Shown here one piece after another: positions 13,730-56,693 of a DNA stretch of 64,000 nt. Position 1 is the first letter of the stretch. Each line of letters opens with the position of its first letter. The DNA lies in contig CAZEEI010000006.1 of NCBI GenBank assembly GCA_964511175.1, forward strand, positions 73 to 64,072. Direction: 5' to 3'. The notes beneath the pieces were generated by a model. That model did not search any database and had not been told where the DNA came from. It was given only the letters and a program-made list of their open reading frames with translations. The position numbers and the translations under genes were made by a program. The stretch comes from an uncultured Pseudomonadales bacterium (GTDB lineage Bacteria; Patescibacteriota; Microgenomatia; UBA1400; UBA1396).

Positions 13730-13749
13730 TAATTCTGCAAGTGAAATAT

Positions 13750-14610
13750 CTAGCGTCGCTTGCCTAGACGGACGCGGCTAATTCCCAGAGACAGGGCACC
13801 AAAGCCGATAATCGCCAGAGCTACGGTCTGGCCGGTGGAACCAGCCTGTGGCAGCTCCTCCGGCACTACGGTTGGCGTAGCCTCAACCGTGGTGGTACCA
13901 GTTGGCGTTGGAGTTGGGGTGGCAGCAGCGCAGGTACAATCGGTTTCCCCCGTGCATTGCGCGTTGCGGCAGTAACCTTCACTGCAGGTCAGGGTGCTGG
14001 GACAGTCGCTGTTGGTGTAGCAGTTGTCGTTACATTGTGGGTTCGGGGTTGGGGTGGGTGTCGCCGTAGGCGTTGGCGTTGGGGTTGGCGTAGGCGTTGG
14101 GGTTGGCGTAGGCGTTGGGGTAGGAGTTGGAGTCGGAATATAGAGGTAAGACTTACTGCAATTAGCCGACACACTCGCATCAGTAGCACAATAATCACCG
14201 GCACAAGGAATACAACGCACTGCCAAATAATCACCAGGCGTAATAGCTGGTGAAGTACTACTGGCACTATCGGCTATCTCGGTGTAAGCACCATCGGCCG
14301 TAGTCTGCTGCTGGAAAATATACCGATCCGTACCAGCGGCACCAGTACAGACAAAGGTCATGGCCGTACCTGGAACAAATTCTTGCGCTGTAGTTAATGA
14401 TAGACAAACGTTACCAATCTCAAATTGTAGCGAACAAATATTAGCGGCGGCGCGCGGACGGGAACTAGGTGCGGTTGGTGCCAGTGGACCACTGGCCTGG
14501 CGAATAAAGTAAACTACACCCAATAAGGCCGCCGTGAACACTAACAACGAAGCCGCTGCTACCGCAGTGCGTTGTTTCTTTAGCCAGATTTTTAGTTTAG
14601 TTAAGTCCAT
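13750..14610 (-). CDS. secreted Cys-containing protein with (TP)n linker and C-terminal sorting-like signal
   Basis: N-terminal signal/TM; TPTPTPTP x~20; C-terminus ELPQAGSTG + hydrophobic segment + RVRLGKRR. Confidence 0.6.
   Translation of the reverse strand: MDLTKLKIWLKKQRTAVAAASLLVFTAALLGVVYFIRQASGPLAPTAPSSRPRAAANICSLQFEIGNVCLSLTTAQEFVPGTAMTFVCTGAAGTDRYIFQQQTTADGAYTEIADSASSTSPAITPGDYLAVRCIPCAGDYCATDASVSANCSKSYLYIPTPTPTPTPTPTPTPTPTPTPTPTATPTPTPNPQCNDNCYTNSDCPSTLTCSEGYCRNAQCTGETDCTCAAATPTPTPTGTTTVEATPTVVPEELPQAGSTGQTVALAIIGFGALSLGISRVRLGKRR
14040..14140. repeat. tandem hexanucleotide-type repeat (GGCGTTGGGGTT...) encoding (TP)n
   Basis: seen directly; inside 13750-14610; produces mirror ORFs on other frames. 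Confidence 0.5.
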
Positions 14611-14629
14611 ATTTTGATTCTATTCGCTA

Positions 14630-17158: not shown

Positions 17159-18057
17159 TATTTCACCTTACTAAAGTCAGCTGCCGCGAACCGGATACCT
17201 GGTTTATCTGGCTCACTGGGACTATCGGCACTAAAGAATACTTTAGGGTACTGAGTGCGTACGTCACCAGCAAACTTAGCTACAAAATATACTACACTAG
17301 ACTCTAGCCCTCGGTCGACCCTTTCGCCAGCATCACCGCGTTTGGCATCAGCCCCCTCGATCCACAGCACTGGCGCGTGATCTGCTACTATCGGGAAATC
17401 GTTTAGTGTGGCGTAAATTAAGGTTGAGTCACTCTTAGAATCGTAGGCCTGAAAAACAATGCCGCCAACGCCTAAGCTCTCTTGATAGTTGGGAAGAGTT
17501 TTATCCGAACCCAAATTGATTACTTTGGCTTTGGGATACAGCAGAGTTAATTGGTTAAACAGCGTGGCTTTTTCACTTTCCTTAATGGAGGGCGAAACAT
17601 TATCCGTACCCACACCAATCGTGCGATTCTCCGCCGCACTAGCCGGGCGGGAGGGTGTTTGTGTCACGGCTGTGCGGGAAGCTGAAGTCGGCCACAATAA
17701 CCAAATTAAACCGCCAACAATAACTAATAGACCAATCACCCCCAAAATAATCAGCTGGCGTCGATCGTTTGACTTAGAACCAACTGCAGTTTGACTGACC
17801 ACACCGGCTGTACTCGGCGTTTGCCCGCTTGGCTGCCCCAACAAACTATTCACTACCGGATTTTCCGCTGGGGATACTGGCTTAACTGGTGTCACCGGAC
17901 TGACCGGCAAAACACTAGGAACTGGCGTGGGTGTTAAAGTTGGCGCGGCGGCGGTATCGCCCGGCACGGATTGATAATAAGCGTTAACTGGCTTAGCCTG
18001 ACCCACTGAGGGTTCGGCGATGGGCTGGGTTTGGTCTTTTGGCAGGTCATTATCCAT
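17158..18057 (-). CDS. Pro-rich bitopic membrane protein (299 aa)
   Basis: 1-nt overlap with downstream gene; N-terminal Pro/Thr-rich, one TM, C-terminal globular domain. Confidence 0.5.
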   Translation of the reverse strand: MDNDLPKDQTQPIAEPSVGQAKPVNAYYQSVPGDTAAAPTLTPTPVPSVLPVSPVTPVKPVSPAENPVVNSLLGQPSGQTPSTAGVVSQTAVGSKSNDRRQLIILGVIGLLVIVGGLIWLLWPTSASRTAVTQTPSRPASAAENRTIGVGTDNVSPSIKESEKATLFNQLTLLYPKAKVINLGSDKTLPNYQESLGVGGIVFQAYDSKSDSTLIYATLNDFPIVADHAPVLWIEGADAKRGDAGERVDRGLESSVVYFVAKFAGDVRTQYPKVFFSADSPSEPDKPGIRFAAADFSKVK

Positions 18058-18117
18058 ATTTAATGGTTCACTCTAGAATAAGTATGACAAGAAAATGTTT
18101 GAGAGGCAAGATGAAAG

Positions 18118-19041
18118 TTACTCCATAGTAGGTGGTTGATTATCGGGGATTGTGGGTGGCATTACGGTTTTTGGTACATCAGTTGGTATGATTGGCTGCG
18201 GCGTCACCGATTTTGCCCCAGCAGCAACCGTTTTCCCCGAACGGCGGTATAAATAACCGACTAACACCAGAATGAACAGGCCTAGTCCTAAAACTAATGC
18301 CGCAGCGATTAGTCGGTTGCGGCTAGGCAAGGCCGGGCTTACCGAAACTGGTGCTGGGGTTGTTTCCGCCGTCACCTCTTCTGGCGCTTCAACTGCCGGT
18401 GTAGAATCAATAATCTCTGTCTGGGGTGTGACCGACGGCACCGGCACAGCGGTAACATCTTCATCACCAATAATGCTCTCTACGGCAATCGGTGGTGCTG
18501 GGGTTGCACTCGCCTGACCAGAAGCAGTGAGGGACACACCAGTCACTTTGCCCAGAACGTCCACTGCGTCGGCCTTGCGCAGCACCTGCGTTTGGGAAGT
18601 ATCAAAGGTAAGCTGCTTGGCAGTAAAAGCAGTCGTCGAACGCAGGGTGAGGGTGGCGATTTTAACTTCACCGTTAACGGTATAGCCGGTTGGTTCGGTA
18701 GTGAGACCAACAATATCGATCACCGTTTGGCCGTCAGCATTCACCGAAGACTGCACGGGAAACATCCAACCCAGACTGGCATTAGGTAAAATAGATACCA
18801 CATTCAAGTCATTGGGGCTGGGCGCGTCATAAGTAACACGGATGGCCACGCCGGTAATCGGTTGGGTGTCACTGGATAACACCACATCCACTTTAAAATC
18901 ACGGCCAGGCGAAGCCGTAGCGCTAGCGGGCACAAAACTTAAACTCGCTTTGCCACCAGACTGAAAAGCGGCAACCGGCGAAACCAAAACTAAGATCAAC
19001 AAACCAAAACCGGTGATTGCTTGGCAGGCTCTTTTTAACAT
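18118..19041 (-). CDS. cohesin-domain protein, membrane-anchored via C-terminal TM
   Basis: signal peptide; ~150 aa beta-sandwich matching cohesin pattern (GRDFKVDVVLSS...GVAIRVTYDAP..LNVVSI...IATLTLRSTTAFTAKQLTFD); PT/PAP linker; TM + YRRSGK. Confidence 0.6.
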   Translation of the reverse strand: MLKRACQAITGFGLLILVLVSPVAAFQSGGKASLSFVPASATASPGRDFKVDVVLSSDTQPITGVAIRVTYDAPSPNDLNVVSILPNASLGWMFPVQSSVNADGQTVIDIVGLTTEPTGYTVNGEVKIATLTLRSTTAFTAKQLTFDTSQTQVLRKADAVDVLGKVTGVSLTASGQASATPAPPIAVESIIGDEDVTAVPVPSVTPQTEIIDSTPAVEAPEEVTAETTPAPVSVSPALPSRNRLIAAALVLGLGLFILVLVGYLYRRSGKTVAAGAKSVTPQPIIPTDVPKTVMPPTIPDNQPPTME

Positions 19042-19043
19042 AT

Positions 19044-20771
19044 TTAGTCGCCCAGAACTTCCAACTTGTTATAACCAGACAGAATTAACGCGATGTCGGT
19101 AAAGGTAATGTTGCCATCACCATTAATATCGATAATCACTGATTCTGGTTTGTCACTAACGGGGGTAGTGAGTTTGGTCACATAAGTCATCATCTTGCCA
19201 AAGTCGACAATATTAATTTTATTATCATTATTAAAATCGCCGATGATGAGTTTCCATTCATCTTTATTGTGGCGGGGCAACTCGTTTAGCTTACCTTTAT
19301 ACAAGTAAACCTGCGTAAACTTGCGGCGCAAGGTGTTGTCACCCTTAACGGTAACGGTGTAGTAACCAGAGACAAAATCGTTCGGCAAAGAGCTGGTTAC
19401 GACCCGATAGCTGCTGGAGGTTGTATTCCAAGTAGCTTCCTGATTAGACAATTCGGCTACCACATCCGTAGCCGTTTCGACAGTAATTTTAACTTTGCGG
19501 GCACCAACGTTAGTGGTGATGCCTTTAACATTGAAGTTCAAACCGATGGTAGTTTCCGCCAAGAAATCCTTGACCTCGCTGTACCCATCTTCGCCAGCAA
19601 TGTTGTAAACCCAAACACGCACTGCCCCATTGGCAGTAGCTGGCACCGTGGCGACAATTTCGGTGTTAGTCCACTTCTTCACTGTTCCTAGAGCGGTACC
19701 AAAGTAGACATAATACTGAGTGGGACCAAAGTTGTAGCCTTTGATCGTCACGTCTGTACCGGCTGGTGCCGACGCCGGTGTCAAACTCTCCACTACTGGC
19801 TTGAGATTAACGTAATAGTAGCGGCTGATCGGATCAGAAAGATTATTCGCTGCATCGGTCACCTGGGCATGGATGGTGTTAAGACCATGCGGGCGAACTT
19901 TTTCGTATATCGGATCATTGGACCAAGCACTCCAAGAAACACCATCCTCACTGAAGCGATAACGCAGGAAACCGGGATAAGTAATGAGTGTGTCACTGGG
20001 CCGATCAGGCTTATCAACGGCCTTAACCGTAAACTTTATGTTGCGGTCAATAACGGTGCTGGCGGCAGCTGGACCTTGATCAAACTGAACCGTGGGTTTT
20101 TGGGTGTCATTAACAAAAGTTAGAGTCAGAGGCGGCACGGTTTGGAGAACATCCATACCAGCGTTGTCACCACTCTTGGCGATGGCGATGGCTTTGCCCG
20201 GATCTTGCTCTAAAGTGATTTGCCCTAGGGCGGTAGACATGAATGCAATGCGCGCAATTTTTACCCTGCCGGTGGCGGGAGTCTTGTAACCCGATGTACT
20301 TAGACAAGTTAAACTGAAATCGATGGTCACCTTTTTGTCGCCAGCCTTAGTTTCCCGTTCGACCGTGTTGATTTGGTCAGATAGGCAGGGATCAATACTA
20401 TCGGCCAAAGACAGGATTTGCGTGCCAGCCACATCTGCATTGAGGTCGATCACCATCAAATTGGGTGACGCACCAGCACCGGAGTTATAACCTATCTGAA
20501 AAGCTACACCGGATACTGCTGTACCCGCTGTATCCAAGTAGAGATCAACGAAAAAAATATCACCGCTATAACGACTGGTTGATTCTGTTTCCATGGTTAG
20601 CTTAACCGTGCCTAAAACCGAAGCAGCCCGGGAACGAACTTCCGTAGTCTCACCGCCCCCTTGGAAATAGTGTGAGAAGACATACCAACCGACGCCGCCG
20701 GTTAAGACCAAAAAGATAATACCGATCAGGGAATAAACCACCAGACGACCGCGCGTTAGTCTGTAAGACAT
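19044..20771 (-). CDS. multidomain surface protein with N-terminal cohesin-like module, Ig-like domains and C-terminal type-I dockerin
   Basis: C-terminal duplicated Ca-binding dockerin repeats IIGDFNNDNKINIVDFGKMM and IDINGDGNITFTDIALILSGY; N-terminal signal anchor; paralog at 31879-33615. Confidence 0.7.
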   Translation of the reverse strand: MSYRLTRGRLVVYSLIGIIFLVLTGGVGWYVFSHYFQGGGETTEVRSRAASVLGTVKLTMETESTSRYSGDIFFVDLYLDTAGTAVSGVAFQIGYNSGAGASPNLMVIDLNADVAGTQILSLADSIDPCLSDQINTVERETKAGDKKVTIDFSLTCLSTSGYKTPATGRVKIARIAFMSTALGQITLEQDPGKAIAIAKSGDNAGMDVLQTVPPLTLTFVNDTQKPTVQFDQGPAAASTVIDRNIKFTVKAVDKPDRPSDTLITYPGFLRYRFSEDGVSWSAWSNDPIYEKVRPHGLNTIHAQVTDAANNLSDPISRYYYVNLKPVVESLTPASAPAGTDVTIKGYNFGPTQYYVYFGTALGTVKKWTNTEIVATVPATANGAVRVWVYNIAGEDGYSEVKDFLAETTIGLNFNVKGITTNVGARKVKITVETATDVVAELSNQEATWNTTSSSYRVVTSSLPNDFVSGYYTVTVKGDNTLRRKFTQVYLYKGKLNELPRHNKDEWKLIIGDFNNDNKINIVDFGKMMTYVTKLTTPVSDKPESVIIDINGDGNITFTDIALILSGYNKLEVLGD

Positions 20772-20825
20772 ACTGGTTTTATGCTACGCGATTAATGGTG
20801 GAAGTGTCAATCAAGGTAAATTTTG

Positions 20826-20899
20826 TGCGCGCACAGGGACTCGAACCCCGAACCGCGAAGGTATAAGCTTCGTGCTCTAACCAATTGAGCTATGCGCGC
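20826..20899 (-). tRNA. tRNA-Ile, anticodon UAU (TAT)
   Basis: manual cloverleaf fold: 7-bp acceptor GCGCGCA/TGCGCGC, D-arm GCTC..GAGC, anticodon stem CGAAG/CTTCG with loop CTTATAC, 5-nt variable loop, T-arm CGGGG-TTCGAGT-CCCTG; no encoded CCA. Confidence 0.7.
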
Positions 20900-20900
20900 C

Positions 20901-20978
20901 CTTAGGGTGTCACCCTCCAGAGGTAAAATGAATCAGGGTGTCACCCTAAAATTTTTTACCTCTGGAGGGTGACACCTT
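20901..20978. repeat. REP family B element (AGGGTGTCACCCTCCAGAGGTAAAA ... TTTTACCTCTGGAGGGTGACACC nested palindrome)
   Basis: seen directly; abuts the 5' end of tRNA-Ile. Confidence 0.65.
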
Positions 20979-20981
20979 ACA

Positions 20982-21551
20982 TTATACGATAAAAGCCCAA
21001 AAAAGGAGGCTAACTAAGACTAGGAGCCCTACTATGGCCACTATTCCTAGTATCACCGGCAAACGACCACTGAGAACTGAAACCGGTTGGGCGGCGGCTG
21101 GAATAGGTGTGACTGTGGCCACCGGCTGAAACTCAGGGATGGGCGTAACCACCACTGCCCCTTCATAAGCTCGTTGGCGAATTTCCTGAGACTGCTGGGT
21201 TAAAACGGTGGCCGAACCAACCCCCACCACTAGTAATAAGATTGCAACTAGACCACTAACTAGGCGCAAATCGATTTTAGGCAAACGGCGCTGACGCTCG
21301 GAAAGACTACTGGATAACAAATGAGCAGTGTCGGTCACGCTTGGTTCGGATGGCTCCGGACCAGCGGTGGGCAAGGATGCTGGGACGGGCGCCGCGGGTA
21401 GACGAGGTGTTAGTTGAACATCTAAATTGTCGGTACCGGCGGAAAGCGGCGTTTCCCACCCCGCGGCACCCGCACTGTCCATCCGCGGGTAAGGTGTCGA
21501 GTCACCTTCGATTTCTCGCAAAACAGTATCTAAACTCGATGGTGTGTTCAT
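20982..21551 (-). CDS. Pro/Ala-rich bitopic membrane protein
   Basis: 189 aa, central TM, C-terminal TM. Confidence 0.5.
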   Translation of the reverse strand: MNTPSSLDTVLREIEGDSTPYPRMDSAGAAGWETPLSAGTDNLDVQLTPRLPAAPVPASLPTAGPEPSEPSVTDTAHLLSSSLSERQRRLPKIDLRLVSGLVAILLLVVGVGSATVLTQQSQEIRQRAYEGAVVVTPIPEFQPVATVTPIPAAAQPVSVLSGRLPVILGIVAIVGLLVLVSLLFWAFIV

Positions 21552-21553
21552 AT

Positions 21554-22972
21554 TTAATCGTGATCTGACTTACCCGCCAAACGATTGCTCCAAACACCAA
21601 CTCCTAAAAAGACTAGTGCTAACCCCGTCAACCAAGCTAGAGGCCAACTAGTACCGGAAACTGGTTGCTGCTGCATTCCTACTGCCGGCGTCGGCTCCGG
21701 CGTAATCAGTGGCGTTGGGGTTGGAGCGGGAGTGGGCAAAACGGTTGGTACAGGAGTAGGCGTTGCGATCACACCTGAAGGAGTGGCCGTAAAAGCCGGT
21801 ACACCGGTGCTGGCTTGCACAATAAAATTACGCTCAACGGTTTGCAAAACACCATTAGCATCGGTGTAAGACACGGTGATGGTGTGCTGTCCTGGCTCCA
21901 AATTGCCAGGCGGCACCCACGTCCAAGTACCGTCGGCGTTAGCTTGGGCGGTACCGTCATAATTTGTCTCAGAGTGAACCTGAATTTGCAGTTGAGTATT
22001 AGGCGGTGCTTTGCCACTGAATTCAGGTCGATCCGTACTGATCGTTTCTCCCTCAGTAACCGAAGTGATCTGAACCGGAGTAGCACTATCTACCTGGTTA
22101 CCCTCTCCCTCGGAAAATAATGAGCCAAGCGCCGAACCGGCTGTATTGCTGGTAACGGCACTGGCAGTCGCTGTCGACTCCGCTAGCGCCTGAGGTTCCT
22201 GACCAAAACGCAAATCGTAAAGCGGCGACAAGTCCTGAGCCATGGCCGTCAACTCCAGTGTTTGGTTGCGCGCTGTGCCTACTGCTTGGATACGCACACT
22301 GGTGTCACCAGTTAAGGAAAACAGCGCCGAAAGGTCAGTCGTACGTACGGTAGAGATCGGCACCGCCCAGCTGCCGTTAGTCTTAACCAAGGCCGACAAC
22401 GGCGAAGCGCCCTGAATAGACAAGTAAAGGATCGCTCCCTCCGCCGGATTGCCGACTTCATTATTCAAGTTACCGTAGGCGGTTTGAGCCTCGGGCGGAT
22501 TTTGCAAGCGCTGAGCCGTACGAACTGCAAAAGACTGGCCGCGATTGTCGAACAAATTGCGCGAACCGGTACCGATTTGAAAATAATACTGGGTAGTCGG
22601 CTGCAGCCCTCTTACCGACACGTGGTGAGTGGTGTACTCACTACTGCCGCCGGTCAACTGGTCGCGGTCATCGGCCACTTGCAGAGGTAGACGATTGGTT
22701 TCCTGGCCGTATTTAATATAGCCAGGCGAGGCAGTATCGGTTAAAAAGGAAACGGTAAAACCAGTGTCGGTGATGTTGGTAATCCTCACTTGTTTGGGGG
22801 TGGCACCTTCGGCCGCCCTGGGCAAAAACCCACCTGTCCCTTGACCAACCAGAACAATGCCAACTACCACTCCTAGCGCCAAAATACCTAGCCCCAGCAA
22901 AGTGGGGATACGTTTGGCCAACAAACCACCAACGCCAGCTGGTTTCGTCAAAGTGGGCATACCTATCTTCAT
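21554..22972 (-). CDS. surface protein with FN3-like and bacterial Ig-like domains, PT-rich stalk and C-terminal anchor
   Basis: N-terminal TM; PKQVRITNITDTGFTVSF...QYYFQIG FN3-like; Ig-like domain; PTPVPTVLPTPAPTPTP; C-terminal QPVSGT + hydrophobic + RLAGKSDHD. Confidence 0.6.
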   Translation of the reverse strand: MKIGMPTLTKPAGVGGLLAKRIPTLLGLGILALGVVVGIVLVGQGTGGFLPRAAEGATPKQVRITNITDTGFTVSFLTDTASPGYIKYGQETNRLPLQVADDRDQLTGGSSEYTTHHVSVRGLQPTTQYYFQIGTGSRNLFDNRGQSFAVRTAQRLQNPPEAQTAYGNLNNEVGNPAEGAILYLSIQGASPLSALVKTNGSWAVPISTVRTTDLSALFSLTGDTSVRIQAVGTARNQTLELTAMAQDLSPLYDLRFGQEPQALAESTATASAVTSNTAGSALGSLFSEGEGNQVDSATPVQITSVTEGETISTDRPEFSGKAPPNTQLQIQVHSETNYDGTAQANADGTWTWVPPGNLEPGQHTITVSYTDANGVLQTVERNFIVQASTGVPAFTATPSGVIATPTPVPTVLPTPAPTPTPLITPEPTPAVGMQQQPVSGTSWPLAWLTGLALVFLGVGVWSNRLAGKSDHD

Positions 22973-22984
22973 GGTAGCGGGGAA

Positions 22985-23332
22985 TCAAGTCCCCGGCAAT
23001 AGCTCCTCCCCAGCCGGCAATGGAACCAACGGCAGCAACGCCCCTTCAGCGGTGCCCTGCGGTGATTCGGCTATGGTAATTATTTCGCGCAAATGTTGTC
23101 TAGCCTCATCAACGGTAACGTATTGTTTTTTTTCCAGAGTTTCGATCGTTTTTAAATCAATCAGGGGGTTAAGCGGTTCAATCAGTTGTTTGATCCCGGC
23201 TGGCAGAGTAGTACGCTGCGTACTAAGGTAAAGCTCAATACCGATACCCACTGCTACCGTCAGTAAACCTAGAGTCAGGGCGGCTACTACTACCCGTTGA
23301 CGGAGAATGCCGCCATAAGTCAATCGTCTCAT
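22985..23332 (-). CDS. small bitopic membrane protein (PilP-position)
   Basis: 115 aa, N-terminal TM, 4-nt overlap with upstream gene. Confidence 0.4.
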   Translation of the reverse strand: MRRLTYGGILRQRVVVAALTLGLLTVAVGIGIELYLSTQRTTLPAGIKQLIEPLNPLIDLKTIETLEKKQYVTVDEARQHLREIITIAESPQGTAEGALLPLVPLPAGEELLPGT

Positions 23333-24054
23333 TTCTCCTCCCCCACAATAGCCGTATCAGAGTCTTTAGCTTTAGTACCTGCGGCGCGAGCCGGTGCTTG
23401 TTTAGGCTGATAGCCATAAAGAAACAGTGTGGCGTTAACCAAAATAACCGGTTCCTTATTGCGCTCCTCTCGCACTGTTACCGAAAAACCATTCACCGCC
23501 AATAGCGGACGGACACTTTCGATCGTGCGGAAGAAACGTTGAATACTCCCTAAATCACCTTCAAAGGTAATCTGAATACTGTAAATACCGATTTCACTTT
23601 TGTTGAGCAGGGCCAAATCGCTGGCCGCCGCCGGAGTTTGCCCGGTGGACAAATCTACCGGAAAGTTTTTGATCTGTAGGCCGACTAAACTAGCATCGGC
23701 GGCGGCGGCCAAATACTCCAAATAAAATAAGGCGTTCTCTAAAGATAACTGCTGGTGAACCGCGGTAGCCAAAACGGGAAAACGGCTCTTGTAGGTATAG
23801 TAGTCGCTTTGCGCCGTGGAGAGGGCGGCAATTTTTTTACTTAATTCTTGGTCCACTACTCGCTTTTCTTCGATTTCCCGCACTAAACTCGACATCGTAT
23901 TTAGCGTAGGGCGCAGGGCAAAAAGGGCAAAAAAGATTACCGTGGTCAAAGAAAGGAAAAGCTCCAGCGAAACCCGCGTAACTGGTTTTTCGTAAAACTG
24001 CTGCAAATTATTGCGCAGTGATTGAGCCGAAATAAAGCTGCGTTGTTGCGCCAT
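23329..24054 (-). CDS. PilO-like bitopic membrane protein (tentative)
   Basis: short cytoplasmic N-terminus, TM, coiled-coil, C-terminal globular domain; overlaps neighbours by 1-4 nt. Confidence 0.45.
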   Translation of the reverse strand: MAQQRSFISAQSLRNNLQQFYEKPVTRVSLELFLSLTTVIFFALFALRPTLNTMSSLVREIEEKRVVDQELSKKIAALSTAQSDYYTYKSRFPVLATAVHQQLSLENALFYLEYLAAAADASLVGLQIKNFPVDLSTGQTPAAASDLALLNKSEIGIYSIQITFEGDLGSIQRFFRTIESVRPLLAVNGFSVTVREERNKEPVILVNATLFLYGYQPKQAPARAAGTKAKDSDTAIVGEEK

Positions 24055-24725
24055 TAGGGCTTTCCCCCTTGTATTTCCAACTGATCGGACAATCCTTTTT
24101 GATAAATCACCGACAAAGAAAAAGTGACACCGGGATCACGTTGGTCGCCGCTTTGGATTTCGCTAATCGAAATCTGTCCCAAATCTGGTTGGGATTGAAT
24201 ACCTTTAATCAGCAAAGCCAGTGATTGGTTGGATTTGGCTTTACCTTGCAAGGTTAGCCTTTCGCCGGACAAATTAATCTGACCGTAGGAAATATCCGGC
24301 GGCGTCACTTTGGTCAGTGTATCCAACACTTGCCAGCGTCCTTGGGTTGAAAGAATGAAAGCGATGTCCTTGGTGCGGCGTTGAATCGCCCGAAAATCCT
24401 GTTCCAGTGTACCGTAGGATTCGGCAATGGCCTGTTTCTGCACAATCGAAGTATTGAGATCGGTAAGTTGCCGATCCAACACGAAACGCGAAAAAAAGCT
24501 GCCAATGACCACTAACTCGGTAAAGATCACAATGTGTCGTCCTACTCCCACCGCCCATCGCAAAATTTTGCCAACTACCGTGGCATAGAAAGGGTCCTCC
24601 GGGTAAAAATTTAACGCCGGGACTAAAACCTTCTTTCGACCGGTTCGATTAAGCAGGCCTGTAAACATAACCGTATGTTCAGTATACCCTGCCCGGTACC
24701 GCGTATAATAGCCCCATGGTGCCAT
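24054..24725 (-). CDS. PilN-like bitopic membrane protein (tentative)
   Basis: VLVPALNFYPED motif (cf. PilN INLLP) before single TM, periplasmic domain; first gene of the 20 kb co-directional array. Confidence 0.45.
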   Translation of the reverse strand: MAPWGYYTRYRAGYTEHTVMFTGLLNRTGRKKVLVPALNFYPEDPFYATVVGKILRWAVGVGRHIVIFTELVVIGSFFSRFVLDRQLTDLNTSIVQKQAIAESYGTLEQDFRAIQRRTKDIAFILSTQGRWQVLDTLTKVTPPDISYGQINLSGERLTLQGKAKSNQSLALLIKGIQSQPDLGQISISEIQSGDQRDPGVTFSLSVIYQKGLSDQLEIQGGKP

Positions 24726-30948: not shown

Positions 30949-31869
30949 TTAGCGTCGGCGCAGCAAACTATAGCCACCGGCTGTTAACATTCCACCACCC
31001 GCCAAAGTAATAATTACTAAAGCGGCCGGACTGGCGGTTGCCGGAATCGGCTGAGTAACTTCTACCTGACCGGTAGTAGTCGTACTACTGTAAACAGTGG
31101 GCGTTGGCGTGGGTGTAGCAGTGGTGCCACTATAGACAGTGGGCGTAGGTGTGGGCGTAGGTGTAGCCCCAACTGGGGTAGGAGTTGGCACCGGAGTAGG
31201 TGTCGGCGTAGCGCCAACCGGCGTGGGCGTGGGCGTGGGCACGGGTGTCGGCGTAGCGGTGGGCGTTGGTGTAGGTGTAGGGGTGGGAGTGGGCTGTACC
31301 GAAGCGCCACTAGCACTATAAGAACCATTAGTCACCCCACCTAAAATATCGGTAGCATCAGATTTCTTGAGCATCTGTGATTGAGTTAAATCGAACGTGA
31401 CTGCCTTACTAGTAAAGGCCGCGTTAGCTCGAAAAGTAATCGTGGCAATCTTCGTATTGGCAGTGGTACTAGAGCCATTAGTCGAGGAATTAACCGCCAT
31501 TAAATCAACTTGGGTTTGGCCGCCAGCCGTATTGATATCAGTGACTGGGAAAGACCAGCCGCCACCCAACGCCGTATTTCCTTCAATGGTTACGGCCTGC
31601 AGATCGGTACCAGTAAAAACCAAACGCGAGGCAATGCCAGAAATAGCCTGCCCACCTGTGGTAAACATAATATCTACGGTGAAGTTTTGTCCGGTGGTCA
31701 TCGTGCCGGAACTGGGTTGGAGCAATAAACGCCCTACTCCGCCGGCGAGATAAGCTTGCGAGGCAACCGCCCCATTAAGCCAGAGAACCAAAGCCAAGAG
31801 GCCAACCGTCAGCCAACGGAAAACCGACTTCTTCGCCGAGTGTGTAATGTTCCCGGGCAGCGTATTCAT
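30949..31869 (-). CDS. cohesin-domain protein, membrane-anchored (paralog of 18118-19041)
   Basis: signal peptide; cohesin-pattern beta-sandwich (GQNFTVDIMFTT...ASRLVFTGTDLQAVTI...IATITFRANAAFTSKAVTFD); long (TP)n linker; C-terminal hydrophobic + LLRRR. Confidence 0.6.
   Translation of the reverse strand: MNTLPGNITHSAKKSVFRWLTVGLLALVLWLNGAVASQAYLAGGVGRLLLQPSSGTMTTGQNFTVDIMFTTGGQAISGIASRLVFTGTDLQAVTIEGNTALGGGWSFPVTDINTAGGQTQVDLMAVNSSTNGSSTTANTKIATITFRANAAFTSKAVTFDLTQSQMLKKSDATDILGGVTNGSYSASGASVQPTPTPTPTPTPTATPTPVPTPTPTPVGATPTPTPVPTPTPVGATPTPTPTPTVYSGTTATPTPTPTVYSSTTTTGQVEVTQPIPATASPAALVIITLAGGGMLTAGGYSLLRRR
31139..31321. repeat. tandem repeat DNA encoding (TP)n / (PTPV)n linker
   Basis: seen directly; yields mirror-frame poly-GV ORF. 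Confidence 0.5.
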
Positions 31870-31878
31870 ATCCTCCCA

Positions 31879-33615
31879 CTACTTTTCGGCATCACCGGGC
31901 GTTTCCAACTTGGTGTAGTTAGTAAGCAACAGGGATATGTCGGCCGCTGTTAAGAAATTGTCCCCGTTCAAATCATATTTACGGGTGGTATCTTTTATGG
32001 CATTAGATAGACCAACAAAATTACCTTCTTTTACCATGTCACTGAAATCCAGAATCGTAATTTTGTTGTCGCCGTTCACATCACCTACTAGCATAAGATC
32101 AGTGGCGGCCTTTTTACTGACCGCGTTCTGACTACCACGGGTCAAATAAACATTAGTAAAAAGGCGACGCAGGCGTGAAGTCTCCTTCACCGAAACTGAA
32201 TAATAAGCCGTAATGAGATTGGCATTATCGGTCAGAGGCGGCGTTACCACCACATAGGCATTTTCGGTGCCATTCCAAGTTGCATCCAAATTGGTAAACT
32301 TTTGCTCATAATTAACGCGGGTAACAGTCACTGCCAGCTTTTTCACACCACGATCTTGAGCAATCCCCTGCAAATTCATCACAATTTTTAAGTTGGTGTC
32401 CAAAGCAAAACTAACTTTGTTAGAAGCAGGTCGACCGCTAGGCAAAACATGCACCGTACCACCATTAGCGGTAGCTGGTACGATCGCCACAATCGTCTCA
32501 TCCGTCCATAGCGGCAGACTCGTAGTTTGGACATAGGCTGTGCCAAAGTACACCAAATATTTAGTACTGCCAAAATTGAAACCGTGAATAGTGATCTGCT
32601 GACCACCTGCGGCGTGGGTTGGCACGATACTGGTAATGGTTGGTGTTAGATCAACCAAGAAATTCTGCGAAATTTCCGTACTAATGTTACCAATTTTATC
32701 CCGACCACGCACATATATGGTATGACCGGTAGTAATATTGTGCGTCAAAGATGCTGTAACCGAAGTATCGGTTGTCCAAGCAGCGGGCCAACCGGCAGCG
32801 TCAAAACGGTACTGGAACTCAACCGCATTAGCTAAGCCAACCGTGTCGGCCGCGCGCTGCGGATTTTCCGTACCTTTCCAGTTAAAGTTGACGTTAGCAC
32901 TCTTAGTCGCCAGTTTGCCATCAGCCTGGGTAGTTAAAGTGTTGGTGGTAAATTGAACCACCGGCGGCTGAGCGTCGGCTGAAATCTTGATGGTGATCGA
33001 CGGGATCGCGTTCAAGGTATCATTACCATCGCTCTTACGGGTGACAATCGCCTTAGTTGGATCATGTTGGATAATTCGTTCCGCCGCCGCATTAGCGCGA
33101 AAAACGATAGTGGCAATTACCACTTCTCCATTGCTGTTATAACCGGCACCACTCGCACAAGTAGCACCAAAATCAATAAACACTCGGCGCTCCCCAGAAG
33201 CCTCGCGACTTACTTCGTTAATTTGATCGGCACAGCCAGGCATGTTCTGGAGAACCTTCGACTGAATCTGAATACCTGATCTAGTGGTGTCAGTATCAAC
33301 TACTTCTAAATCAGGTGTGGTACCAGCCGAAACATAATTGAGACCCAGCGCTACCGCCGAAACTGCCGTATTACCGGTGTTTAAGACAATATCAACCGGG
33401 AACTCATCTTTAACGTAGCGTGTATTTGAACCGGTTTTAAGCGTAACCGTAGCTGTACCAGCTGCTCCCACACTAGCCCGACCGCGAATTTCCGTGGTTT
33501 GTCCTGGCTGGAAGAAACGATTCATAACAAAGAAGGTAACTAGACCACCAATCGCCAGAACGGCCACAATCACACCAAGTGTTAAATAAGTACGAACCCG
33601 ACGGGACAGCGGCAT
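31879..33615 (-). CDS. multidomain surface protein with N-terminal cohesin-like module and C-terminal type-I dockerin (paralog of 19044-20771)
   Basis: dockerin repeats VGDVNGDNKITILDFSDMV and YDLNGDNFLTAADISLLLTNY; N-terminal signal anchor. Confidence 0.7.
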   Translation of the reverse strand: MPLSRRVRTYLTLGVIVAVLAIGGLVTFFVMNRFFQPGQTTEIRGRASVGAAGTATVTLKTGSNTRYVKDEFPVDIVLNTGNTAVSAVALGLNYVSAGTTPDLEVVDTDTTRSGIQIQSKVLQNMPGCADQINEVSREASGERRVFIDFGATCASGAGYNSNGEVVIATIVFRANAAAERIIQHDPTKAIVTRKSDGNDTLNAIPSITIKISADAQPPVVQFTTNTLTTQADGKLATKSANVNFNWKGTENPQRAADTVGLANAVEFQYRFDAAGWPAAWTTDTSVTASLTHNITTGHTIYVRGRDKIGNISTEISQNFLVDLTPTITSIVPTHAAGGQQITIHGFNFGSTKYLVYFGTAYVQTTSLPLWTDETIVAIVPATANGGTVHVLPSGRPASNKVSFALDTNLKIVMNLQGIAQDRGVKKLAVTVTRVNYEQKFTNLDATWNGTENAYVVVTPPLTDNANLITAYYSVSVKETSRLRRLFTNVYLTRGSQNAVSKKAATDLMLVGDVNGDNKITILDFSDMVKEGNFVGLSNAIKDTTRKYDLNGDNFLTAADISLLLTNYTKLETPGDAEK

Positions 33616-39196: not shown

Positions 39197-39735
39197 ACTT
39201 AGAAATATTCCTCTTGAGGAAAACAACGTTGAGATCGAATCTCAATGGTAACTATTCTGATCGCTTTCGCTGTTATTGTTTTTTCGATGGCCAAACTCTA
39301 CACGCGCAAAAAGTTTATCGCTGGCGCTTCTTATCACATTTTTAATCGAGGCAATAATCGATCAGCTATCTTTTTTTCTGAGGCTGATTTTCTGTTTTTT
39401 CGTCAGGCGGCTAACAAGGCTCTGATCAAAGTCGAAGGAGAAGTAGAAACACAAGTTTTCGCCCTGATGCCTAATCACTATCATTTGCTGGTTAAACAAA
39501 AAACGGAAAGGGCTATCAGTAAATTTATGCGTTCGACTATATGTGCCTACGCAAAATATATGAATCGAAAATACCAACGGGAAGGTACTTTGTTTAATGG
39601 TATCTATTGCGCTAAATTACTAACTACGGCAGCGGAAATTACTGCTGTACGCAAATATATTCTAGCTAATCCTGCTGAAGCTGGCTTGGTTGGTTGGCGC
39701 CACGTCGGTTTGCATATCTGAGGTCCAATCTCAAA
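39156..39735 (+). mobile_element. RAYT-REP unit 1: IS200-like tyrosine transposase flanked by TTGAGAT-N3-ATCTCAA palindromes (39156-39172, 39228-39245 upstream; degenerate 39719-39735 downstream)
   Basis: palindromes seen directly immediately bracketing the transposase ORF. Confidence 0.5.
39245..39721 (+). CDS. IS200/IS605-family Y1 HuH transposase-like protein (REP-associated tyrosine transposase type)
   Basis: ~155 aa; HuH motif PNHYHLLV; IFNRGNNR N-terminal motif; C-terminal Tyr (YILANP); two paralogs at 47222 and 60749. Confidence 0.7.
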   Translation: MVTILIAFAVIVFSMAKLYTRKKFIAGASYHIFNRGNNRSAIFFSEADFLFFRQAANKALIKVEGEVETQVFALMPNHYHLLVKQKTERAISKFMRSTICAYAKYMNRKYQREGTLFNGIYCAKLLTTAAEITAVRKYILANPAEAGLVGWRHVGLHI

Positions 39736-39788: not shown

Positions 39789-40364
39789 ATGTTGCGTTGG
39801 CGTAGCGTTTTGGTGTTGGTTGTCTGGTTGACTTTGTTGGCCGTAGGGCGATCCGTGGCGCAAGCCGCCACTTATGCCGTTACCATTTCTAACACCCAGT
39901 TTTCGCCAGCTGCTCTGCAGATATCGGTTGGCGACCAAATTAGTTTCTTCAACTCAACCACCGCCACCCAAAGTGCGGTTACTACCAATACCAGTGGTTT
40001 CAATACCGGCAATATTGGTGCCGGCCAGACTAAGGTAGTAATTGTCAGCTCCCCGGGAACTTTTTCTTATACTTCAGCCTACAATCCCGCCCTGGCCGGC
40101 ACAGTGACGGTCAGCAGCACAAGTACCAGCATCATTGCTACCCCCACCCCTAGCACCACAACCACCACGGTGGATTCAACACAACCCCAACCGGTGTCGG
40201 GTACAGCGGAAATAATGCTAACTTTAACGGCTGCTGGTTTGGCTTTGCTTGGTTTAGGTCTATATACTGCCCGCCATGGCACGGTGGTCGGCAACAATCC
40301 GGTAGTGCACCTTCCCTTGATATCAGCGGCGGAGGTTCAGCCTCATGAGCGTCTCGATCACTAA
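39789..40364 (+). CDS. secreted cupredoxin-like domain protein lacking copper ligands, PT-rich stalk, C-terminal anchor
   Basis: signal peptide; beta-sandwich ending ...NPALAGTVTVS; TPTPSTTTTT; QPVSGT + hydrophobic + RHG. Confidence 0.45.
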   Translation: MLRWRSVLVLVVWLTLLAVGRSVAQAATYAVTISNTQFSPAALQISVGDQISFFNSTTATQSAVTTNTSGFNTGNIGAGQTKVVIVSSPGTFSYTSAYNPALAGTVTVSSTSTSIIATPTPSTTTTTVDSTQPQPVSGTAEIMLTLTAAGLALLGLGLYTARHGTVVGNNPVVHLPLISAAEVQPHERLDH

Positions 40365-40896
40365 TTTTTACCAAAAATTGAGGCGACAACACCCTCATTT
40401 TGCACTTTCTTTGGCCGCAGGACTGCTCTTGGGTTTTTGGCGATCTTGGGGTGAAAGCAGCTGGTGGCTAATTGGTTGGTCGACACTATTGTTTGGGGCA
40501 GGTGTTCTGCTGGCTCAGCTGGTTTTCCTCGGTGATGAAGCCCTACACTACGCGACTCAACAACATTTGCCGCTGGGTAACCCCAGTGAAGTGATGAGTG
40601 ATATTTCACCATTGCGCCGGGGTTATATGCTGCTGGTCTTGCCGGTATTAGCCCTTTTTTTGATTTCTTCGACCCGCGCTACTTTAGGACTAGGCTTCTT
40701 TTGGGGCTTATCCAGCGTCTACTGGTGGGATTTGTGGCGTTACTTTACCGACACTACTGCCCGCGCCCAACTACATCAGCGCTACTTTAACCAATTCCCT
40801 GCAACTTCAGCTTGGGTAACGGGAATATTGTTGGCCTATTTGGCGTACGGTCTGATCCTAACCGTAGTATTGGGGTGGCAGCAGGGAACCACATGA
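40345..40896 (+). CDS. integral membrane protein (4 TM)
   Basis: hydrophobicity; ATGA overlap with lgt. Confidence 0.45.
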   Translation: MSVSITNFYQKLRRQHPHFALSLAAGLLLGFWRSWGESSWWLIGWSTLLFGAGVLLAQLVFLGDEALHYATQQHLPLGNPSEVMSDISPLRRGYMLLVLPVLALFLISSTRATLGLGFFWGLSSVYWWDLWRYFTDTTARAQLHQRYFNQFPATSAWVTGILLAYLAYGLILTVVLGWQQGTT

Positions 40897-42686
40897 ACTT
40901 TTCCTGGTACGGATTATTGATTGGCTTGGCTGTAGTCGTGGCTTTAGTTCTGGCCGAACACCTTCTTTTTCTCACTCGACCGAAAGCGGCCAAGCGAACC
41001 AACTGGGGGCAGCTGGCCTGGGCTATTTTCTTGGGGGGAGTGGTGGGCGCGCGCGGTTACCACGTCTGGACCGATTGGTCACTCTACCGCGCGCGCCCCA
41101 TCACCGCACTATTTATCTGGCAAGGTGGCTTAGGTATCTGGGGCGGCATTGCCGGCGGGTTAATCGGCTTAACCATTTGGCATAAATTAAGTCGCTCTAC
41201 TTGGCGCTGGCTAGAACTAGCCGATGCCGCCGCTATTGTTACTCCCTTCGGCCAAGCAATCGGCCGTCTGGGAAACTGGTGTAACCAAGAAATCTACGGT
41301 CCTCCCACGAATTTACCCTGGAAAATCTGGATTGCCCCTGAGCATCGCTTACCTGCGCTGACCGAACAGGCCTATTATCATCCACTCTGGCTTTATGAGG
41401 CGCTGGCTAATCTCGTCATCGGTTTACTGTTGTATTGTCTGTGGCGCATTAATCGGTCTTGCCGAATTTTTCCTTTTTTCCAATTGGGTTCGGGCGGCTT
41501 TCTGGCTCTGTGGATGTTGGGATATGGCACCGTCCGTTTTTCGCTCGAATTATTACGTTTAGAATCAGCTCTGGGCTGGGGCGGTTTAACCATTGCGCAG
41601 TGGGTGGCGCTGGGTGCGATCGCGGGTGGTTTGAGTTGGTTGGCTGTTTTGGCTCGTCAATCAGTAGCCCGCTTAGCTGGCGCGTTGGCCGGTCTCGCCT
41701 TTCTAATCTGGTCAGCTACTAGCGTTCGGGCGCAAACACCCGTTCCTTTTGACTTATCGATTAGCCCTTCGGTAGTGGAAATAACCGTTAAACCAGGTAA
41801 GTTGGTTACTCAGGCTTTCTTGCTGGAAAACAGTGGTTCGGATGATCTAGAAGTCACGCCAGTGTTGCGCGATTTTACTGCTGACAACCAAACTGGTCGG
41901 GTAGTTTTGCAGGAGGTTGGTACTTTCCCCTACGCTCAACTGGCCAACGCCGAGCAACAACTTAATCAACCCTTCCTTTTACCCAGCGGTGGCAGTCAGC
42001 AACTGGTACTAGGTTTGGATATTCCCGAAAACGCAGTCGAGCGCGATTGGTACTTTACGCTGTTACTAACGACGCGCCGCGCGGCCACTACCTCCCTAAC
42101 TGATTCCGGCGCTGAGGCGCGCGGCGCAATTGGCGCCAACCTTTTGGTACGTATCACCGCTACCGACACCACGCCGTTATCCTGGAACATCAAACTGCAA
42201 CTGCCCCGTTTTATTGACAGTTTGCAAACCCTCACTCCCCACGCCCTCATTAGTAATAACAGCGACACCGTTGCCTCGCCAGAATTGAGCCTGGTCATCC
42301 TCGATTGGAAAAATCAAATTGTCCATCAACAAGATGGCCTGCCAGATCGTATTCTGGCACACAGCAGTCGGGAAATTTGGGCTGCTCAAGCTCGCCGCGA
42401 CGATCCGCGTTCGTTCGACAGCGCGCCCTTTACCTACAATCCACTCCTGGCGCTGGGACCCTACCGAGTCCGCGTCACCATCCGCAACGCAGCAGCTGGC
42501 CCAATGATTGTTGAAGAAACAGTTTGGGCGTTACCTTTTTCCTTATCAGCCGGAATAATCATTTTAGCGATCATTTATTTTTTAGGCCGAAAAAGTGGCT
42601 GGCACTTAACGGCGACGGCGGCTAACCAACCAGGCGAGCAACAGCACCGGCAGCCACAGCGGCGTAAACACCGCCAGCCAGATTAA
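40893..42686 (+). CDS. lgt: prolipoprotein diacylglyceryl transferase fused to C-terminal TM + extracellular beta-sandwich domain
   Basis: Lgt motifs (GARGYHVWTDW, GGLGIWGGIAGG, GNWCNQEIYG) in first ~280 aa; extra ~320 aa with TM and CARDB/DUF11-like beta domain. Confidence 0.75.
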   Translation: MNFSWYGLLIGLAVVVALVLAEHLLFLTRPKAAKRTNWGQLAWAIFLGGVVGARGYHVWTDWSLYRARPITALFIWQGGLGIWGGIAGGLIGLTIWHKLSRSTWRWLELADAAAIVTPFGQAIGRLGNWCNQEIYGPPTNLPWKIWIAPEHRLPALTEQAYYHPLWLYEALANLVIGLLLYCLWRINRSCRIFPFFQLGSGGFLALWMLGYGTVRFSLELLRLESALGWGGLTIAQWVALGAIAGGLSWLAVLARQSVARLAGALAGLAFLIWSATSVRAQTPVPFDLSISPSVVEITVKPGKLVTQAFLLENSGSDDLEVTPVLRDFTADNQTGRVVLQEVGTFPYAQLANAEQQLNQPFLLPSGGSQQLVLGLDIPENAVERDWYFTLLLTTRRAATTSLTDSGAEARGAIGANLLVRITATDTTPLSWNIKLQLPRFIDSLQTLTPHALISNNSDTVASPELSLVILDWKNQIVHQQDGLPDRILAHSSREIWAAQARRDDPRSFDSAPFTYNPLLALGPYRVRVTIRNAAAGPMIVEETVWALPFSLSAGIIILAIIYFLGRKSGWHLTATAANQPGEQQHRQPQRRKHRQPD

Positions 42687-47221: not shown

Positions 47222-47701
47222 ATGCCTAGTAAAAATGCACGCAAAATTTTTAGGCCACAATCTTTTTACCATATTTATAACCGAGGCACGAAAAAACAAC
47301 CGGTATTTCTGCAGGAGAAAGATTATTGGCGGTGGCGTCAAATATTGGCGTCGACTTTGCTCGAATTTGAAGGCACCATTAGTATTACTCATTTTGCCTT
47401 TCTACCCAATCACCTGCATTTACTTATCTGGCAACAAAGCGAAAGAGATATTACCCGATTTATGAGAAAAATTACTAACCGATATGCGTTTTATTTACAG
47501 AAGGAATACAACTGGGTTGGCCACGTTTTTCAAGGAGTTTACAAGGCTAGTTATTTATACACCAAAAAAGAACGTCGCCGCATTGAAAAGTATATTCTAG
47601 ACAATCCTAAAAAACATGGATACGTCAACTGGAAACACGTTGGTAGAGGGTCAGACCTATGGCGGGGTCCGACCCCAGCCATAGGTCTGACCCCTCCCTA
47701 G
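47222..47701 (+). CDS. IS200/IS605-family Y1 HuH transposase-like protein (RAYT type), paralog 2
   Basis: IYNRGTKKQ and PNHLHLLIW HuH motif; C-terminal residues are read-through of REP. Confidence 0.7.
   Translation: MPSKNARKIFRPQSFYHIYNRGTKKQPVFLQEKDYWRWRQILASTLLEFEGTISITHFAFLPNHLHLLIWQQSERDITRFMRKITNRYAFYLQKEYNWVGHVFQGVYKASYLYTKKERRRIEKYILDNPKKHGYVNWKHVGRGSDLWRGPTPAIGLTPP
47646..47697. repeat. REP family A cluster downstream of RAYT paralog 2
   Basis: GGGTCAGACC...GGGGTCCGACCCC...GGTCTGACCCC seen directly. Confidence 0.65.
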
Positions 47702-50793: not shown

Positions 50794-51275
50794 ATTTTCA
50801 CCAATTTCACCACCTCCGGCACACAATACTGTCGCAACGCTGCCCGCTGACTGACAGCAACCACACCGGACTCAATGCCGTCCAAGATTATATTTTGCCA
50901 ACTGTCTTCCAGCGAAGCGATTGCTTCCTCAGTAACATTCTTATTATCATTGACTGCTTTTAAGTGGTTAGTATTAATATAAATAGCTACCCTTCCTTGC
51001 AAAATAGGGGTGGCTCCCACCAAAGGCAGATTGGAACCATCTTCTTGGGTAAGGCTATACATGACAAACTTGTCAGCCGCGGGATCACTGATCACCTCAA
51101 TCCGATCAACCAAGATACCAGCCGACGTTAAGCAAGATTTTAACCGATCCAAGTAAAAAGGATAAGCAAAGTTACGATTTTGATTCTGCGTTTGCCAGTA
51201 CCAGAAGATACTATATCCCAATAACGAACCCAAAAAAAGTAAAACCGCCAAGAGGAGCACCCAACGCGAACGCAT
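50790..51275 (-). CDS. N-terminally membrane-anchored protein (161 aa)
   Basis: ATGA overlap with downstream giant gene; N-terminal TM. Confidence 0.5.
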   Translation of the reverse strand: MRSRWVLLLAVLLFLGSLLGYSIFWYWQTQNQNRNFAYPFYLDRLKSCLTSAGILVDRIEVISDPAADKFVMYSLTQEDGSNLPLVGATPILQGRVAIYINTNHLKAVNDNKNVTEEAIASLEDSWQNIILDGIESGVVAVSQRAALRQYCVPEVVKLVKI

Positions 51276-53803: not shown

Positions 53804-53808
53804 CTTGC

Positions 53809-54789: not shown

Positions 54790-54837
54790 AGTTGCTCATG
54801 GATGAGTGAATTGTAGACCTGTGTATTTTTGTAATGC

Positions 54838-55461: not shown

Positions 55462-55502
55462 GTGTCGCCATAGTATAATTCATCTTATAGGATTGCACAA
55501 TT

Positions 55503-56645: not shown

Positions 56646-56693
56646 GTTCCAATACCTATTGTTTTTTCAACAATACTAAAACTTCCTAAACAA

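Follow-up and report, generated by a model that had tools for sequence, protein, structure and literature searches.

Two copies of a cohesin-dockerin gene cassette

We report a two-gene cassette, present in two anciently diverged copies within one 64-kb stretch of bacterial DNA (contig CAZEEI010000006.1 of assembly GCA_964511175.1, positions 73 to 64,072; "the window" hereafter), in which a large gene for a multidomain protein ending in a dockerin is followed by a small gene for a stalked protein with a cohesin-fold domain. With somewhat better than even confidence, we read it as a conserved, enzyme-free cell-surface system: the dockerin of the large protein would dock onto the cohesin of the small one, and the assembly would act as a tether or adhesin. 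The evidence comprises the dockerin signature of the large protein, the predicted cohesin fold of the small one, and the conserved order of the two genes among relatives.

Both pairs are encoded on the minus strand. The second pair consists of a large gene at 31879..33615 (578 amino acids: N-terminal transmembrane anchor, cohesin-fold domain, FN3-like domain, IPT/TIG domain, X-like beta-sandwich and dockerin) and a small gene at 30949..31869 (306 amino acids: signal peptide, cohesin-fold domain, Thr/Pro stalk and C-terminal anchor). The first pair consists of a large gene at 19044..20771 (575 amino acids), a paralogue with the same architecture (cohesin-fold domain at ~20127-20615, dockerin at ~19047-19244), and a small gene at 18118..19041 (307 amino acids), whose product has a signal peptide, a cohesin-fold domain (~18508-18963), an acidic/Pro linker, and a transmembrane helix (18244-18315) followed by a 45-amino-acid cytoplasmic tail. 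In pairwise alignments, the large paralogues are 37% identical from end to end (E 5e-104), and the small paralogues are 38% identical across the N-terminal 230 residues (E 7e-37). The claim of a preliminary description of this DNA, that pair 2 repeats the architecture and order of pair 1, thus holds, with open reading frames found at exactly these coordinates.

The large and small genes lie 2-10 nucleotides apart, being separated by 9 nucleotides in pair 2 and by 2 nucleotides in pair 1. The in-frame spacer of pair 2 (31870..31878, minus strand), TAG-TGGGAGGAT-ATG, runs from the stop codon of the large gene to the start codon of the small one and contains the Shine-Dalgarno-like element GGGAGGA, which suggests co-translation of the two proteins. 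A scan for promoters and terminators performed no better than on shuffled sequence.

The dockerin of the pair 2 large protein (amino acids 510-575; 31891..32088, minus strand) was recognized by the Pfam model Dockerin_1 (PF00404) with 30.4 bits (4.6e-7), and that of pair 1 with 27.8 bits, the gathering cut-off being 22.9. It is built of two Ca2+-loop repeats and a conserved C-terminal LE-x-x-GD tail: the motifs DVNGDNKITILD and DLNGDNFLTAADISLL occupy amino acids 512-523 and 548-563 of the 578, and the Ca2+ loops lie at 512-523 (D512-N514-D516-D523) and 548-559 (D548-N550-D552-D559), with a spacing of 36 residues. In a nine-sequence alignment of the subfamily, D512, N514, D516, D523, D548, D552 and D559 are invariant; across 26 family members, D512, D523, D548 and D559 remain invariant, and D552 reaches a conservation of at least 90%. 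A few full-length members have a degenerate first Ca2+ loop, the dockerin and its tail being otherwise recurrent. A PDB profile search with the large family also returned dockerins for the C-terminal region, and AlphaFold2 placed helices at 521-528 and 557-564, where the predicted local distance difference test score (pLDDT) is only 55-73. The dockerin repeats noted earlier in this gene are therefore present, above the Pfam cut-off and with both Ca2+ loops intact.

The small protein as an anchored cohesin

The cohesin-fold domain of the pair 2 small protein covers amino acids 42-190 (31300..31746, minus strand). Its AlphaFold2 model, built from a 10-sequence alignment (pLDDT 90.5, predicted template modelling score 0.83), predicts a nine-stranded flattened beta-sandwich, or jelly-roll, superimposable on solved cohesins. 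Among PDB structures, the 50 best Foldseek matches were without exception cohesins, including those of types I, II and III and those of Clostridium perfringens and Archaeoglobus fulgidus, with a best E value of 2e-9 and a target-normalized template modelling score (TM score) of up to 0.80; sequence identity to these solved cohesins is only 7-18%. The preliminary description had named a failure to model as a cohesin jelly-roll as an outcome that would count against it, and the opposite was found.

The rest of the protein agrees with the same description, which had listed a cohesin-like domain, a Thr/Pro linker, a transmembrane segment and an RRR terminus; to these can be added a signal peptide, ending in …SQA|Y, and the extent of the beta domain (~150 residues). 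The Thr/Pro-rich stalk, assigned from sequence, spans amino acids 191-268 (78 residues; 31066..31299, minus strand) and is followed by an LPXTG-like, sorting-signal-like tail composed of QPIPATASP, a hydrophobic helix and RRR (30952..31053, minus strand). At the same position, small orthologues carry LPVSG, MPVSG, QPVSG, VPTSG or VPETA. Two unrelated proteins of the window end alike, an fn3/Big_13 protein (21554-22972, minus strand; QQQPVSGTS...) and a cupredoxin (39789-40364, plus strand; QPQPVSGTAE...), so that three secreted proteins of the window share the C-terminal signature Q-P-[VI]-[SA]-[GT], hydrophobic helix, basic tail. Because the signature recurs on unrelated proteins, the tail looks like a lineage-specific LPXTG-type sorting signal. 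No NCBIfam sorting-signal or family model matches it, and no sortase family was found among the 52 open reading frames of the window scanned with Pfam. The pair 1 small protein and distant relatives have, instead of a sorting-like signal, a transmembrane helix followed by a cytoplasmic tail of ~30-115 residues. Whichever type of anchor is used, the predicted topology holds the small cohesin away from the cell on a stalk, with its C-terminus fixed.

The large protein as a probable adaptor with its own cohesin

The large protein of pair 2 was modelled with AlphaFold2 (overall pLDDT 78), and structural matches were collected with Foldseek. Its N-terminus, a basic stretch and hydrophobic helix at amino acids 5-34 (33514..33603, minus strand; a helix in the model), is a probable signal anchor and recurs in full-length family members with an intact N-terminus. 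In such members a juxtamembrane motif stands ~10 residues past the membrane helix. In pair 2 it reads TEIRGRAS (consensus [FT][DE]xRx[RK]A[SA]; 33472..33495, minus strand), and its pair 1 equivalent lies at 20628-20651; T41, E42, R44, R46 and A47 are invariant in the nine-sequence alignment, and across 26 sequences the conservation of R44 and A47 is 90% or more. The motif is possibly a processing or recognition site.

Beyond the motif lies a second cohesin-fold domain (amino acids 53-213; 32977..33459, minus strand), identified with hhalign, hmmsearch and Foldseek. It aligns with the small-protein domain with an hhalign probability of 98.8% (E 8e-17, ~29% identity); the hidden Markov model profile of the small domain matches the N-terminus of the pair 2 large protein with E 3e-16 and that of every large protein examined with E 1e-5 to 1e-17, and Foldseek matched the domain to the cohesin 6kgc_A (target TM score 0.68). 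The earlier division into a dockerin gene and a cohesin gene consequently stands for the dockerin and for the small cohesin, and fails in that the large gene carries a cohesin-fold domain of its own.

Three beta domains connect this cohesin with the dockerin. An FN3/Ig-like domain (amino acids 218-322; 32650..32964, minus strand; strands 219-321 in the model) has as its best Foldseek match 2w1n, the cohesin and FN3 double module of C. perfringens GH84C, which the large model matches with E 3e-10. It is followed by an IPT/TIG domain (amino acids 325-400; 32416..32643, minus strand; Pfam PF01833, 2e-10), which exceeds the Pfam gathering threshold in both large proteins and shows PDB profile matches to cyclodextrin glucanotransferase domain D (8e-16), a domain that is also among the Foldseek matches. 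The third, an X-module-like beta-sandwich (amino acids 405-502; 32110..32403, minus strand; strands 408-501 in the model), adjoins the dockerin, and across this junction the family profile aligns amino acids 469-568 to the dyad of X-module and type II dockerin from CipA (2b59_B, E 2e-6). Over more than 530 columns, the large model also matches the CipA construct Coh9-X-DocII (3kcp_A) and 4fl4. In view of the 2w1n and CipA matches and the X-DocII alignment, the large protein resembles a one-cohesin adaptor (mini-)scaffoldin rather than a mere dockerin protein. Pfam and the small-domain profile detected no carbohydrate-binding module (CBM) or S-layer homology (SLH) domain in the large protein and one cohesin-fold domain per protein.

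Such a layout, an anchored cohesin plus a cohesin-X-dockerin adaptor, copies the way cellulosomes are anchored, and one may ask whether the cassette is a genuine minimal cellulosome or enzyme display, with the large protein as adaptor scaffoldin and dockerin-bearing enzymes encoded elsewhere in the genome. Genes for glycoside hydrolases of families GH15 and GH57 do occur in the same minus-strand run as pair 1, and beside the cassette of a distant relative (locus L009) stand a GH39 gene and one for another Pfam-positive cohesin protein. However, no other open reading frame in the 64 kb carries a dockerin motif, so that the only two dockerin-like proteins are both non-catalytic; the GH15, GH57 and glycosyltransferase family 4 (GT4) proteins show only glycoside-hydrolase or glycosyltransferase families in Pfam and no dockerin; and each protein of the cassette has one cohesin and no CBM. 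GH15 and GH57 are, moreover, kinds of enzymes used in glycogen or starch turnover. We regard this explanation as very improbable, and a true cellulosome, lacking dockerin enzymes, a multi-cohesin scaffoldin and a CBM, is without support within the window.

Conservation of the cassette among relatives

An exhaustive profile search over 1.84 billion representatives showed that the large proteins form a family with ~25 full-length clusters of 555-612 amino acids; the remaining strong matches were giant multi-TIG proteins aligned in the TIG region only. With a word-indexed search, 8 large relatives and 2-4 small ones were all that came up, the paralogue in the window itself not being among them, and a metagenome scan with the nine-sequence alignment found nothing. 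The scan of genome contigs yielded two loci, one in each of two species representatives; the presence of both copies in one genome may therefore be unusual, although the scan patterns could miss diverged copies.

Gene order was compared in 11 loci: the two copies of the window, L001/L006, L002, L003, L004, L005, L007, L008, L009 and L010. The large-then-small order is kept in 11/11, including members that are only 30-39% identical. In all nine relatives, the gene directly downstream of the large gene begins with a small-type cohesin domain (E 1e-38 to 1e-80). Conservation of this order argues that the cassette is under selection, and the survey of related genomes thereby bears out the initial view of a real, selected system. 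A chance occurrence of the domains is ruled out by the E values between the paralogues together with the conservation in all of these loci.

Named relatives belong to Candidatus Woesebacteria (L005, 63% identity, same synteny), Candidatus Shapirobacteria and the "Patescibacteria group", and to judge from these sequence relationships the cassette is assigned to Microgenomates-type (Woesebacteria-like) bacteria of the Candidate Phyla Radiation (CPR). In our literature search, no paper was found that describes the present cassette in Woesebacteria or other CPR bacteria. The L001/L006 locus (GCA_964460975.1, CAYWTN010000004.1) holds Pth, GT4, SufS, NifU, NTPase_I-T, LysRS, Lgt and the cassette, with the gene content and synteny of the Woesebacteria-type window; the title of this record, "uncultured Pseudomonadales bacterium", is probably a wrong label. 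In the L009 locus, a 352-amino-acid protein (3504-4562, plus strand) is Pfam-positive for Cohesin and Big_13, its cohesin having no match to the small-domain profile; together with a GH39 glycoside hydrolase gene (4605-5969, plus strand) it lies immediately upstream of the large gene.

Age of the duplication and divergence of the dockerins

Three clades of large proteins are roughly equidistant (33-42% identity): pair 2 with its orthologues, L001 with L002, and pair 1 with P0015. Orthologues of pair 2 keep the neighbourhood NTPase_I-T/NifU/SufS … LysRS, and P0015, the orthologue of pair 1, keeps the order fn3/Big_13 protein, ~180-amino-acid protein, large gene, small gene, ~296-amino-acid protein. 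A neighbour-joining tree likewise grouped P0015 with pair 1, and P0004 and P0006 with pair 2. Since each of the two copies is matched by a separate orthologue with a distinct synteny, the duplication is ancient and both copies have been maintained. Identity, synteny and the tree thus confirm that the two pairs are clearly diverged, as had been noted, and the 36-42% identity of the paralogues, their separate orthologues and their separate synteny rule out a recent duplication. Identity between the large paralogues differs by domain: it is highest in the IPT/TIG domain (47%), followed by the dockerin (44%), the cohesin (42%) and the X-like sandwich (35%), the FN3-like domain being the least conserved (26%).

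The recognition positions 10-11 and 17-18 of the dockerin repeats, which had been proposed for comparison, differ between the two pairs. Counting from the first Asp of each loop, and comparing the pair-2 clade (6-7 sequences) with the pair-1 clade (two sequences only, pair 1 and P0015), repeat 1 has V against F at position 2, D against K or L at position 15, and V-K/R against M-T at positions 17-18, while repeat 2 has A/I-A against F-T/Q at positions 10-11 and T/A against S at position 18. Inside the better-sampled pair-2 clade, these clade-specific residues are conserved. As a comparison of residues, the differences fit distinct specificities of the two dockerins, without proving them. Given the long separate maintenance of the copies and these changes at contact positions, the two would probably form non-interchangeable assemblies.

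Proposed assembly and its alternatives

In the assembly that we propose, the dockerin of the large protein would plug, in a Ca2+-dependent manner, into the cohesin of the small anchor protein expressed with it, by analogy with the X-dockerins of scaffoldins, which dock into wall-anchored single-cohesin proteins (ScaE of Ruminococcus flavefaciens, SdbA of Clostridium thermocellum). The large protein's own cohesin would stay free as a second socket, through which complexes could extend head-to-tail or be cross-linked. Without a catalytic module, the product would be a structural or adhesive surface assembly, such as a tether, a coat or an attachment device, and not a cellulosome. The term "cognate pair", i.e., a dockerin binding the small cohesin of the same cassette, accordingly denotes a predicted pairing.

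Several observations weigh against this proposal. The Pfam Cohesin model (PF00963) stays below its cut-off in the pair 2 small protein (15.5 bits vs 24.1; E 0.02), finds no match in the pair 1 small protein and was flagged only as "weak" in the L003 small orthologue; nor did the small domain give a significant match in a sequence-profile search of the PDB (E 0.3), so that the cohesin identity of this domain is not visible from sequence alone. The dockerin portion of the large model is of moderate confidence, as given above. In our reading of the alignment, the small cohesin seems best conserved around strand 8 of the model, where it carries the pattern FD-x-[ST]Q-x-x-[LFT]-x-K-x-D-x-x-D-[IVM]-[LA]-G, and this segment appears alike in both paralogues. 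In cohesins, the strand-8 segment lies near the usual dockerin-binding face (the 8-3-6-5 sheet); if this textbook mapping holds for the present domain, the likeness calls for caution about orthogonality. With two cohesin-fold domains and one dockerin per cassette, the partner is ambiguous, and it could be the large protein's own cohesin rather than the small one. If the N-terminal helix is an uncleaved anchor, the large cohesin would sit at the membrane and may be sterically hidden. Finally, non-cellulosomal cohesin-like and dockerin-like modules often have no demonstrated partner (Peer et al. 2009, as cited in PMC9012536).

The last point and the subthreshold Pfam scores also speak for a different explanation, in which only the folds are present: the domains would be generic Ig-like and EF-hand-like modules without mutual binding, each protein would bind external host glycans or proteins, and the genes would be linked through a common function in attaching an episymbiont to its host. 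In a cultivated Saccharibacterium, an envelope protein with a dockerin domain is essential, and the authors read it as targeting glycans or the host (PMC10633639). We consider this rather unlikely: across 30-70% identity, the cohesin gene strictly adjoins the dockerin gene in every one of the loci compared, as expected of interacting partners, and both Ca2+ loops and the helices carrying the contact positions are conserved.

The presence of a cohesin-fold domain and a dockerin on the same large chain is compatible with head-to-tail self-assembly, in which the dockerin binds the cohesin of another large copy, or its own in cis in an autoinhibited state, with the small protein as chain base, chain terminator or competitor; a polymeric fibre or lattice would result. 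The conserved motif after the transmembrane helix could be cleaved to set the subunit free, and the strand-8 region is apparently partly common to the large and small cohesin domains. On the other side, these two domains are only ~29% identical, so that a single dockerin need not bind both, and the motif stands ~12-15 residues past the hydrophobic core, which is far for signal peptidase I. Self-assembly of this kind, itself compatible with docking onto the small cohesin, is in our estimate unlikely.

Docking of the dockerin onto the small cohesin can be extended into a picture that we hold to be decidedly unlikely in its full form: a self-assembling, enzyme-free tether on an ultrasmall CPR bacterium, with the small protein as base and large subunits as chain, each docking by its dockerin and presenting its cohesin to the next, in two orthogonal copies, e.g., one linked to a pilus or cell-envelope cluster and one constitutive, serving attachment to host or kin. 

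CPR bacteria (Patescibacteria) are believed to live attached to other microbial cells, and little is known of how their surfaces are built and how they attach. The cassette suggests concretely how proteins might dock onto one another on such cells, a hypothesis that is testable with recombinant domains and without cultivation. With two diverged copies in one genome, it also allows the divergence of dockerin-cohesin specificity to be studied in a natural setting, and pairs of this kind would be useful as orthogonal parts in protein engineering.

Comparison with known cohesin-dockerin systems

The ScaE/ScaB X-dockerin system of R. flavefaciens (type III; PDB 2zf9 and relatives of 4wkz) also includes a small single-cohesin protein with a linker, whose C-terminal sortase-type signal would correspond to the LPXTG-like tail of pair 2. 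The partner bears a cohesin and closes with an X-module, comparable to the X-like sandwich of the window, and a dockerin. The ScaE cohesin is among the Foldseek matches of the small domain. However, ScaB bears many cohesins and displays enzymes, whereas the cassette of the window has one cohesin per protein and no enzymes, its large protein is equipped with an N-terminal membrane helix, and the organism is a CPR bacterium. In contrast to the sortase-type signal of ScaE, sortase dependence of the pair 2 small protein is putative, and the pair 1 anchor is a transmembrane helix with a cytoplasmic tail. In C. thermocellum, the CohI9-X-DocII part of CipA, which docks onto SdbA/OlpB (PDB 3kcp, 2b59, 4fl4), has an order of cohesin ... 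X-module-dockerin on one chain like that predicted for the large protein. CipA, however, combines nine cohesins with a CBM3 and is anchored via SLH-domain proteins, in place of which the large protein of the window has FN3-like and TIG spacers.

Among non-cellulosomal systems, the modules of the C. perfringens toxin complexes (the cohesin-FN3 of NagJ GH84C, 2w1n, 2o4e and 2jh2; the sialidase cohesin 2vo8) are appended to secreted glycoside hydrolases, whereas the cassette lacks a catalytic domain and both of its partners are cell-anchored. Non-cellulosomal cohesin and dockerin modules occur across bacteria and archaea, and binding has been verified for archaeal ones (Peer et al. 2009 and others, as summarized in PMC9012536). 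The proteins of A. fulgidus (2xdh) and the repertoire of the ANME archaea belong to a different domain of life, and the available portion of PMC9012536 mentions for the archaeal repertoire no conserved cassette of two genes in which one partner is anchored. In the Saccharibacterium Southlakia epibionticum, SEML1_0315 (PMC10633639) is an essential Patescibacterium cell-envelope protein that likewise carries a dockerin and for which a non-cellulosomal role was proposed; it belongs to a different CPR class, the word "cohesin" is absent from the text of PMC10633639, and the likeness is one of description. As non-cellulosomal cohesin-dockerin systems were already known, the present finding extends a known kind to a new lineage and layout and introduces no new principle: it is the layout and the old duplication that are noteworthy within the class of non-cellulosomal cohesin-dockerin surface systems.

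Genomic surroundings

Pair 1 lies in a tight minus-strand run (12101-24725) that begins with PilN, a PilO-like gene, a 115-amino-acid open reading frame, a 472-amino-acid fn3/Big_13 protein and a 189-amino-acid transmembrane protein, and continues with the large and small genes, a 299-amino-acid transmembrane protein, an 842-amino-acid Cys-rich protein without Pfam match, a 286-amino-acid open reading frame and a LytR_C protein. L007 shows parts of this order as well. The run may represent a larger cell-envelope or pilus-associated cluster. The position of pair 1 downstream of the pil genes, and the occurrence of PilN and PilO ~3 kb from the cassette in the distant relative L009, raise the question of a type IV pilus accessory, i.e., proteins that decorate or anchor the pilus. 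As no pil genes stand near pair 2, its orthologues, L001, L002 or L010, and the sequence has no pilin-like N-terminus, this explanation is extremely improbable.

Other features of the window are given for completeness. An Lgt protein (prolipoprotein diacylglyceryl transferase; 40812-42686, plus strand; Pfam 5e-47 over amino acids 28-277) is fused to a ~340-residue C-terminal extension that closes with a hydrophobic helix followed by a very basic tail; such an architecture is unusual for Lgt. Three paralogous genes for IS200-like Y1 transposases (RayT-like; 154-159 amino acids; Pfam Y1_Tnp 1e-10 to 1e-11) lie within 22 kb at 39245-39721, 47222-47701 and 60749-61213, all on the plus strand. The G+C content is 35-44% at 1-4000, 52000-58000 and 62000-64000, compared with ~50% in the rest of the window. 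The 52-58 kb block, which may be acquired DNA, carries genes for a methyltransferase, a double NUDIX protein, a histidine phosphatase, a glycosyltransferase-like protein and an NYN-domain protein. Finally, a secreted protein of 1042 amino acids (47698-50826, minus strand) has an N-terminal region rich in Cys, ~18 glycines in a row and two F5/8 type C (discoidin) domains, and a protein with F5/8 type C domains is also found near the cassette in L001.

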